Origin: Octopus vulgaris
Taxonomy: Eukaryota
NCBI GenBank assembly: GCA_951406725.2
Contig: OX597832.1
Location: 42,346,001-42,410,000 of the forward strand
Direction of reading: 5' to 3'
DNA: 64,000 nucleotides
In this document: positions 36,540-38,037 of the stretch, piece by piece
How the letters are laid out: each line of letters starts with the position of its first letter
Numbering within the stretch: position 1 is the stretch's first letter
Made by a program: the position numbers and the translations under genes
The notes under the pieces: model-generated
Told to the model about the DNA's origin: nothing
The model's database searches: none
The model's input: only the letters and a program-made list of their open reading frames with translations

Positions 36540-37075
36540 AAGTAGCTTGCTAACCAACAACATGGTTCCGGGTTCAGTCCCACTGCGTGGCACCTTGGGC
36601 AAGTGTCTTCTGCTATAGCCCCGGGCCGACCAATGCCTTGTGAGTGGATTTGGTAGACGGAAACTGAAAGAAGCCTGTCGTATATATGTATATATATATA
36701 AGTGTGTGTGTGTATATGTTTGTGTGTCTGTGTTTGTCCCCCTAGCATTGCTTGACAACCGATGCTGGTGTGTTTACGTCACCGTCACTTAGCGGTTCGG
36801 CAAAAGAGACCGATAGAATAAGTACTGGGCTTACAAAAAATAAGTCCCGGGGTCGATTTGCTCGACTAAAGGCGGTGCTCCAGCATGGACGCAGTCAAAT
36901 GACTGAAACAAGTAAAAGAGTAATAGATATATATATATATATTCATAACTTATAAAATAAGGTCAAAAGAAAAATTCTAATGCCAAATATGCCGAAAAAA
37001 AGACAAAATTGTCAATAACCATTATAATTTATGCGTCTCGAAACAAACCGATAGAAATTTCTAAAACATCCGTTA

Positions 37076-37136
37076 TTACCGTATTGGTCCCAATTTCGGG
37101 GTCAATTCATAAGAATTTTCCCCTCTTCAGCGATAA
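37076..37136 (-). ncRNA. Type I hammerhead ribozyme (intact motif)
   Basis: ttatcg CTGAAGA gggg aa aattc ttat gaatt ga cccc GAAA ttgg ga ccaa TA cggtaa. Stems I-III pair. AUA cleavage triplet. Confidence 0.85.
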
Positions 37137-37179
37137 ATACCATGGGTATGAGTAAGTATTTCATTTATGTCTTACGTAT

Positions 37180-37240
37180 TTATCTCTGAAGAGGGAGAAA
37201 TTCTTATGAATTGACCCCGAAATTGGGACCAATACGGTAA
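37180..37240 (+). ncRNA. Type I hammerhead ribozyme (mirror copy, stem mismatches)
   Basis: CTGAAGA 37186-37192, GAAA 37219-37222, ATA 37232-37234. Stem I ttatct and stem II ggga are mutated. Confidence 0.7.
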
Positions 37241-38037
37241 TAAGGGATTTTTTAGAAATTTCTATCGGCTTGTTTCGAGACGCATAAATTATAATGGTTA
37301 TTGACAATTTTGTCTTTTTTTCGGCATATTTAGCATTAGAATTTTTCTTTTGCCCTTATTTTATAAGTTATTTATGAATTTAACCTCTAAAGGTATTTTT
37401 TGATATGCTGGCCATTGATAAAATTTTTTTTCGAAAAAAATTTTATCCTATATTAGTTATATATATTCATATATACATAAATGTCAATAGATAAAAATGA
37501 GTGCACAACACCGCATTGGTGAATAAATTTTTTTTTATTTGTGAATTAAAGCTACCATAGGTTTCGTGCTGAGAAAATATTCTAGCGTCTTAACAATTTT
37601 TCAAACCGATCAAATGAAGAAAGGTGTTCGCCTCCATTTTGGAAAAAAAAAACCTCGTTTTGTTCGCAGGGATTCTCGTGAATTCAGGTGAATAAGACAA
37701 TGAACCAAAGGATATTACTCTTGGGTGGCATCTTTTGAATGTTTGTCTTTCTTGGATTTTACTTTTGAGAAAATTGCTTCGTGGTCAATTTGTTTGCACT
37801 ATTTTGTTCTTGTTCTGGGTTGGGTGTTCTTATACTTGTGTGTTGAGGTAGTTCGTTTTGGGATATATTTCTCCTGTGTGTGGAGTTTGTGTGGTATGTG
37901 TGTTCAGATTTCACGTTCAGAAAAGGGGCTACCCTGGTGGGATTACCGTTGCAGGAGATAGCTCTCCTTTGAAGTATTTGAGTGTAAAATATCATTTGTG
38001 TATGCAGGAATCGAGAGAATTTTAATTATTCAACATC

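Follow-up and report, generated by a model that had tools for sequence, protein, structure and literature searches.

A palindromic insertion with opposed hammerhead motifs in Octopus vulgaris belongs to a dispersed non-coding repeat family bearing Penelope-like integration marks

Organization of the locus

The window analysed here is a 64,000-nt stretch of Octopus vulgaris contig OX597832.1. It contains an inverted repeat whose two arms (36945-37140 and 37176-37371, 196 nt each) align without gaps, with 8 mismatches and 95.9% identity, in agreement with a preliminary description that had recognized a palindrome with arms of about 200 bp. The 35-nt centre (37141-37175) and the segment 37372-37457 are both element sequence of the plus arm, neither spacer nor flank. 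The insertion itself spans 36948-37457 and is bracketed by a 14-bp target-site duplication (Table 1). Of the limits first proposed for the palindrome (36941..37457), the right one stands, while on the left positions 36941-36947 are part of the target duplication. The insertion has a short 3' end at its left side and a long one at its right side. Its minus arm departs from the family column majority at 4 positions and its plus arm at 11, 2 of which are common to the other arm. The target-site duplication, the hundreds of genomic relatives and the contigs of four public sequencing runs covering the 464-nt unit all bear out the earlier view that the palindrome is real, aged DNA rather than a read artefact. 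A target duplication is legible at the window locus only, being hidden by (TA)n in the other loci examined.

Table 1. Features of the palindromic insertion, in window coordinates
Feature	Position	Strand	Remarks
Target-site duplication, left copy, 14 bp	36934..36947	.	Ends a (TA)n run; same as 37458-37471
Inverted 5'-truncated unit copy, short 3' end	36948..37140	-	Ruler 406 to about 136
Type I hammerhead, intact	37076..37136	-	Predicted cut 37082/37081 (after AUA); descriptor, fold, family conservation and covariation
Direct 5'-truncated unit copy, long 3' end	37141..37457	+	Ruler 370 to 223
Splice donor GTAAGT	37152..37157	+	About 30 nt 5' of the hammerhead; conserved in the family, also in sister subfamilies
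Type I hammerhead, core intact	37180..37240	+	Stem I first pair broken (37185), stem II altered (37196-37197); predicted cut after 37234
Tail, about 86 nt	37372..37457	+	From the short to the long 3' end, on a single arm
Target-site duplication, right copy, 14 bp	37458..37471	.	

Taken alone, the window locus is an ordinary, decaying transposon copy, and none of the 11 ORFs checked allowed a host gene to be assigned to it. A common SINE-like repeat (36540-36925) ends at the (TA)n run that took the element and also flanks many family loci. Upstream of it, positions 35045-36360 hold what is left of a frameshifted ORF, likely a decayed retroelement ORF1. It matches a zinc knuckle weakly (PF00098, below cut-off), and a 50-bp tandem duplication comes after it. 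The window also contains a reverse transcriptase (RT) fragment at 16839-17900 (RVT_1, E 3.7e-10) and a microsatellite of ~3.4 kb, made of (TA)n and TATG, at about 38040-41450.

Two unequal hammerheads

The minus arm contains all the hallmarks of a type I hammerhead (CUGANGA, GAAA, NUH and three helices). CUGAAGA lies at 37130-37124, GAAA at 37097-37094 and AUA at 37084-37082, together with a 6-bp stem I and a 4+5-bp stem II, in the order UUAUCG CUGAAGA, stem II, GAAA UUGG GA CCAA UA, CGGUAA. These motifs, the 6-bp stem I and the extended stem II agree with the preliminary description, but the 5-bp stem III closed by 2 nt that it drew is not foldable as a hairpin. Helix III consists of UUGG-GA-CCAA, which would form 4 bp and a tetraloop in a monomer, or a 12-nt near-palindrome in a dimer.

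The proposal that each strand encodes a complete hammerhead holds for the minus strand; the plus-strand motif keeps its core but has a damaged periphery. A U at 37185 replaces the family G, so that the stem I pair beside the cut site is lost, a change found at the equivalent position in 2 of 137 family arms, and stem II reads GGGA-G instead of GGGG-A at 37196-37197. The drawn fold reaches -10.2 kcal/mol on the plus strand versus -14.2 kcal/mol on the minus strand. When the window was searched with a structural descriptor, the minus-strand motif was the sole match and the plus-strand motif failed. An Rfam search gave no match to hammerhead models, whether with the gathering cut-off or with E values up to 10, returning only sub-gathering miRNA hairpin models; such a match reflects the content of a model library and is not a defining property of the hammerhead fold.

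To evaluate conservation, we used 27 loci selected by sequence outside the hammerhead. At six fixed core positions, 2 of 221 cells depart from the column majority, compared with 13 of 37 at N7 and 3.1-5.6% in the rest of the unit. We also aligned 67 natural hammerheads, comprising 65 of the 68 extracted (three were dropped for indels or truncation) and the two window arms. Paired cells amount to 95.1% in this alignment, versus 89.8% when shuffled and 28-45% when slid. The preliminary description had named stem covariation among genomic copies as a test, and such covariation was found across three subfamilies, in 8 of 20 stem pairs changed on both sides, although these represent few independent events and, for stem I, both changed sides lie within CpG contexts. 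Six of the eight pairs are changed in at least 9 sequences and they are spread over all three helices. Judging from these substitution patterns, the hammerhead is under selection in the source elements.

Helix III is near-palindromic in all three subfamilies, with 2, 2 and 1 central nucleotides. Its self-duplex is stable (-12.3, -15.0 and -13.9 kcal/mol) whereas the hairpin is weak (0 to -1.3 kcal/mol). Consequently, we predict that action as a dimer is favoured, a 4-bp monomer helix being possible as well. Dimer action has been described for the hammerheads of Penelope-like elements (PLEs; PMC4209133) and for those of amphibians (PMC6765202), and the present family offers three subfamilies of a compact predicted dimer hammerhead.

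A dispersed family of non-coding units

The palindrome arm is a dispersed repeat, the best 40 candidates in the 2.8-Gb genome being 93-98% identical over their best pieces. An exact 24-mer of the family has at least 256 genome matches (control 0) and a sister-subfamily motif has 513 (control 4); the candidate figures obtained at first look (2445, 2005 and 2525) are not copy numbers. Tandem copies delimit a non-coding unit of 464 nt (natural unit L028:1639-2102) with 31% GC and one type I hammerhead each, and in a sister subfamily the unit measures 497 nt. The natural 464-nt unit provides the circular ruler on which positions in the copies are given. Units succeed one another head-to-tail and ORF-free in three subfamilies, and some loci carry two hammerheads in tandem. 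The longest continuous arm among 118 loci is 949 nt, about two units at most, and long tandem arrays are absent among the fetched loci. Roughly counted, the predicted cut site is crossed twice in about 11 of 192 segments, which suggests a multimeric or circular RNA template. An ORF with RT and GIY-YIG domains is absent both from the palindrome locus and between tandem units. The palindrome is thus one insertion among hundreds of a small, non-coding, hammerhead-bearing repeat, and the family is a new addition to the probably PLE-dependent retrozyme-type elements.

Copies end at two fixed sites that are paired in a regular manner

The 5' ends of family copies are scattered. Their 3' ends fall at two fixed ruler sites, about 136 (short) and about 223 (long), which are 86 nt apart, and nearly always abut (TA)n. 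Since AG precedes both sites in the subfamily of the window, an origin of the 3' ends from splice acceptors was considered; it was rejected as the sister subfamilies lack this AG.

Head-to-head loci are common, with 32 among 63 pattern-anchored loci (70 before 7 duplicates were dropped; 4 of the 63 had been chosen for visible pairing) and 32 among 55 BLAST-ranked loci (60 before 5 duplicates were dropped), while tail-to-tail loci number 0 in both sets. The pairs combine a long and a short end in 25 and 24 cases respectively, and two short ends in 1 and 0; no pair has two long ends, and 6 and 8 pairs have an end at neither site. The sister subfamilies, for which 54 of 60 loci were retained after duplicate removal and a wider window was used for the long end, contain 24 pairs (19 long+short, 1 short+short, 4 unclassified) and 30 singles, tail-to-tail loci again being absent. 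Overall, 68 of the 70 classifiable pairs are long+short, 2 are short+short and none is long+long; 18 further pairs have an end at neither site. Tiny inverted stubs were also seen on some of the 54 'single' copies (a short end with a long stub in 4, long with short in 1, short with short in 1), although these counts are too few to add weight. The full hammerhead span occurs on both strands in only 17 of the 118 loci, so that whether a locus has two opposed ribozymes is set by the points at which its arms happened to stop.

Two marks of PLE insertions are present in the family. One is a 5'-truncated copy inverted head-to-head, with only one end bearing a tail; the other is a (TA)n or AT-rich target with a target duplication where legible. 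The first of these is described as standard PLE anatomy (PMC8557442, PMC3846280), and the head-to-head orientation is reported to dominate among PLEs (PMC3846280).

Long inverted arms and a target-site duplication might also suggest an error of assembly, or else a DNA transposon bounded by terminal inverted repeats, of the MITE or foldback kind. Yet the ends are unequal (short versus long), many copies occur in a single orientation, 5' ends are scattered and units are found in tandem. Equal terminal inverted repeats with fixed ends were not found, and the asymmetric ends and variable centres contradict such a transposon. As for an artefact, contigs of public runs contain opposite-strand joints at varied places. 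We give these explanations almost no credence.

Formation of the inverted pair

The relationship between the two arms of a pair was examined in 46 two-segment long+short pairs. The short arm is nested in the long arm in 23 pairs, as it is at the window locus, the reverse is possible in 4, and neither arm is nested in the other in 19. Arm junctions range from a 13-nt overlap to 23 nt of filler. Across 49 loci, the arms of one insertion diverge by 4.36% and share 1.70% of minority letters, compared with 6.45% and 0.49% between loci, which indicates that both arms derived from a single source and then decayed.

Such arms could have arisen by fold-back self-priming of one nucleic-acid strand of the same element. 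The 23 nested pairs, the window locus included, the frequent junction overlaps of 1-5 nt and the minority letters common to the arms of one insertion are all compatible with this route, and antisense self-priming has been proposed for PLEs by Arkhipova et al. 2013 (PMC3846280). A single cDNA folding back on itself nevertheless requires nesting. In the 19 pairs nested neither way, the long arm has a tail that is missing from the short arm while the short arm extends further upstream; these pairs are not fold-backs and point to two separate primings. Fold-back alone also leaves the 68 long+short pairings unexplained, whereas two primings, each at its own start site, account for the long+short rule with no need for nesting. 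We thus regard fold-back as an unlikely origin of the inverted arm. The 68/70 pairings together with the 19/46 non-nested pairs, the latter possibly a new finding, favour two target primings.

The palindrome is therefore best read as a head-to-head pair of 5'-truncated 464-nt units, which a PLE RT-endonuclease likely inserted by priming on both cut (TA)n strands, one at each fixed start site; we hold this reading with good confidence. The template RNA would be a multimer or a circle, as the head-to-tail ORF-less units and the arms crossing the cut site twice suggest. By analogy with retrozymes, the hammerhead would cut multimers into units, best as a dimer, and circularization would follow. 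A PLE RT/GIY-YIG protein acting in trans would cut (TA)n with a stagger, as reflected by the 14-bp duplication. Each cut strand would then prime its own cDNA, one at the short site and the other at the long site. Both cDNAs would stop early and be joined end to end with an overlap of a few bases or with filler. The resulting copy, as seen in the window, would have lost the upstream part of the unit and be decaying, and read-through would give a long hairpin silencing both ribozymes.

Inversion in LINE-1 through twin priming likewise involves priming from both target strands. Unlike twin priming, the primings in the octopus family would start at fixed, nearby sites, so that the arms overlap and form a palindrome. 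In vitro, the protein of an anole PLE, a predicted dimer, has both strands cut and extended, with two RT start sites that bound the tail (PMC11167929). That each strand has its own site is our inference; the start site was the same between strands in the anole assays, which counts against a fixed link between strand and site in that system (PMC11167929). The regularity of the ends provides a specific and testable claim on PLE integration, and bears on how the inverted repeats and one-sided tails of PLEs originate.

Read-through RNA of the palindrome

The preliminary description had further stated that a transcript in either direction would contain a ribozyme and its own antisense, which is borne out for a read-through RNA. 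It had also proposed that self-cleavage competes with the formation of long dsRNA, and this part was not supported. Whichever strand of a head-to-head pair is read, transcription reaches the antisense arm ahead of the ribozyme. The 520-nt read-through is predicted to fold at -311 kcal/mol, and the hammerhead stem pairs have an equilibrium probability of about 1e-21. The hairpin is consequently predicted to win outright and to shut off cleavage. Long dsRNA could form if the locus were read through. With its plus arm beginning at ruler 370 and its minus arm at 406, the window copy is missing the upstream part of the unit; by analogy with published work (PMC2377424), this part likely contained the promoter.

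We also considered that the host maintains the locus as a switch between ribozyme self-cleavage and long dsRNA formation. The catalytic core is kept on both strands, read-through RNA would fold into the -311 kcal/mol hairpin and contigs of runs guessed to be RNA cover the family. However, the 4% difference between the window arms resembles that of other insertions (4.36%), an important pair is broken in the plus-strand ribozyme, transcription in both directions meets the antisense arm before the ribozyme, and the layout recurs elsewhere with arbitrary, scattered junctions. A host switch is therefore highly improbable, and the opposed ribozymes probably arose as a side effect of the insertion.

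Relationship to PLEs and retrozymes

As described for PLE insertions (PMC3846280, PMC8557442, PMC11167929), the octopus family combines a head-to-head inverted 5'-truncated copy, a tail on one arm, two 3' ends, a (TA)n or AT-rich target, a target duplication and a type I hammerhead preceded by a splice donor. It differs by the lack of an ORF, by an inverted arm that near-systematically has the other end type, and by a tail of 86 nt compared with 30-40 nt for the PLE tails described. Opposite-strand hammerhead pairs lying 100-700 bp apart have been reported in Schistosoma mansoni (PMC4209133).

Non-coding hammerhead units are known as non-LTR retrozymes (PMC7229834). With those of metazoans, the octopus units share a non-coding, low-GC (31%), head-to-tail organization with one type I hammerhead, genomic copies of more than one unit and coexistence with autonomous PLEs (PMC7229834). 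At 464-497 nt they slightly exceed one published size range for retrozymes, 150-450 bp (PMC7229834), and fall inside another, 51-972 bp (Li et al. 2026, bioRxiv 10.64898/2026.07.22.740005). In the loci fetched they are dispersed and often inverted, unlike typical retrozymes, which occur in long arrays. Li et al. 2026 also argued that retrozymes derive from PLE pLTRs. The hammerhead shares a palindromic helix III and a long helix II with the dimer hammerheads of PLEs (Cervera and de la Pena 2014, PMC4209133), but its helix I has the canonical 6 bp, and each side of helix III has more pairs (4-5 bp), so that it may also cleave as a monomer.

Altogether, the anatomy is the known PLE layout of an inverted pLTR plus a tail, found here in a retrozyme-type element, and the family provides, in an invertebrate, a link between units of the retrozyme type and the integration marks of PLEs. 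A published octopus repeat annotation reports active Penelope families, the words hammerhead and ribozyme being absent from its main text (PMC13282606). Among the titles and abstract openings returned by our literature search, none describes the octopus family or counts end pairings, and repeat databases may name the unit otherwise.

A splice donor upstream of the hammerhead

The splice donor listed in Table 1 was further considered through a 2658-nt contig of run X6, which is guessed to be RNA. This contig follows the unit up to ATGA|GTAAGT, the vertical line marking the donor, and continues with other sequence. The first 22 letters past the donor have a single match in the genome, located right after an AG and about 4.1 kb downstream of a same-orientation sister copy with 80% identity; 30 letters of this loose end were seen, and its link to the sister copy was made by position. 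At this locus (G000:C2:121459875-121464210; L173, L174), the donor of the sister copy is apparently joined to an exon 4.1 kb downstream. This single contig points to use of the donor and to an intronic hammerhead, a layout similar to that of Penelope of D. virilis. A host transcript started by the element, with the hammerhead in its first intron, is possible at G000:C2:121459875-121464210.

A broader reading, which we put forward tentatively and at slightly less than even chances, is that an RT dimer primes both target strands, with one subunit for each fixed start site on a circular or multimeric RNA, and yields a long+short head-to-head palindrome nearly whenever both primings succeed. The family would then be a genome-scale record of PLE integration that also lends a first exon and a hammerhead-bearing intron to downstream host exons.

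Search for a partner and resident PLEs

Since only part of the GIY-YIG matches was covered (150 of 6136 candidates were scored in the genome scan), the copies might be pLTR stumps of an autonomous PLE rather than an independent non-autonomous family. The splice donor upstream of the hammerhead, the tail and the (TA)n targeting are indeed pLTR features, and most PLE insertions are 5'-truncated. However, arms pass from unit to unit with no intervening ORF in three subfamilies, and a tblastn search with two PLE proteins found no PLE ORF contiguous with a unit among 190 family loci; between the unit and the PLE fragments L236 and L225 lies (TA)n or other sequence. We consider the stump explanation improbable. 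Likewise, none of the 84 GIY-YIG-linked stretches that were compared with two natural units is an autonomous PLE with a homologous pLTR. The matches consisted of one 31-nt match and one nested insertion (L072/L092), which for this reason was rejected as a unit-bearing partner.

The same genome carries RT+GIY-YIG families that are young, encode ORFs of 781 and about 811 aa, and have pLTR ends abutting (TA)n as well as inverted copies. The family with about 811-aa frames is very abundant, with copies 97-98% identical and many close minus/plus pairs; the descriptor detected no hammerhead in two of its 3' regions (L284, L285). Another young family (L094:744-5960, L091, L093) encodes the 781-aa RT+GIY-YIG ORF preceded by an ORF of up to 479 aa, between near-identical direct pLTRs with (TA)n ends. 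Copies related to it contain a hammerhead-like motif of minimal size, whose core reads UUGAUAA (U3-A8 variant). A further PLE family (L097:2321-5483, L100, L101:3709) exhibits a 766-bp perfect inverted arm and, in its pLTR, a hammerhead-like core whose helix III is very short.
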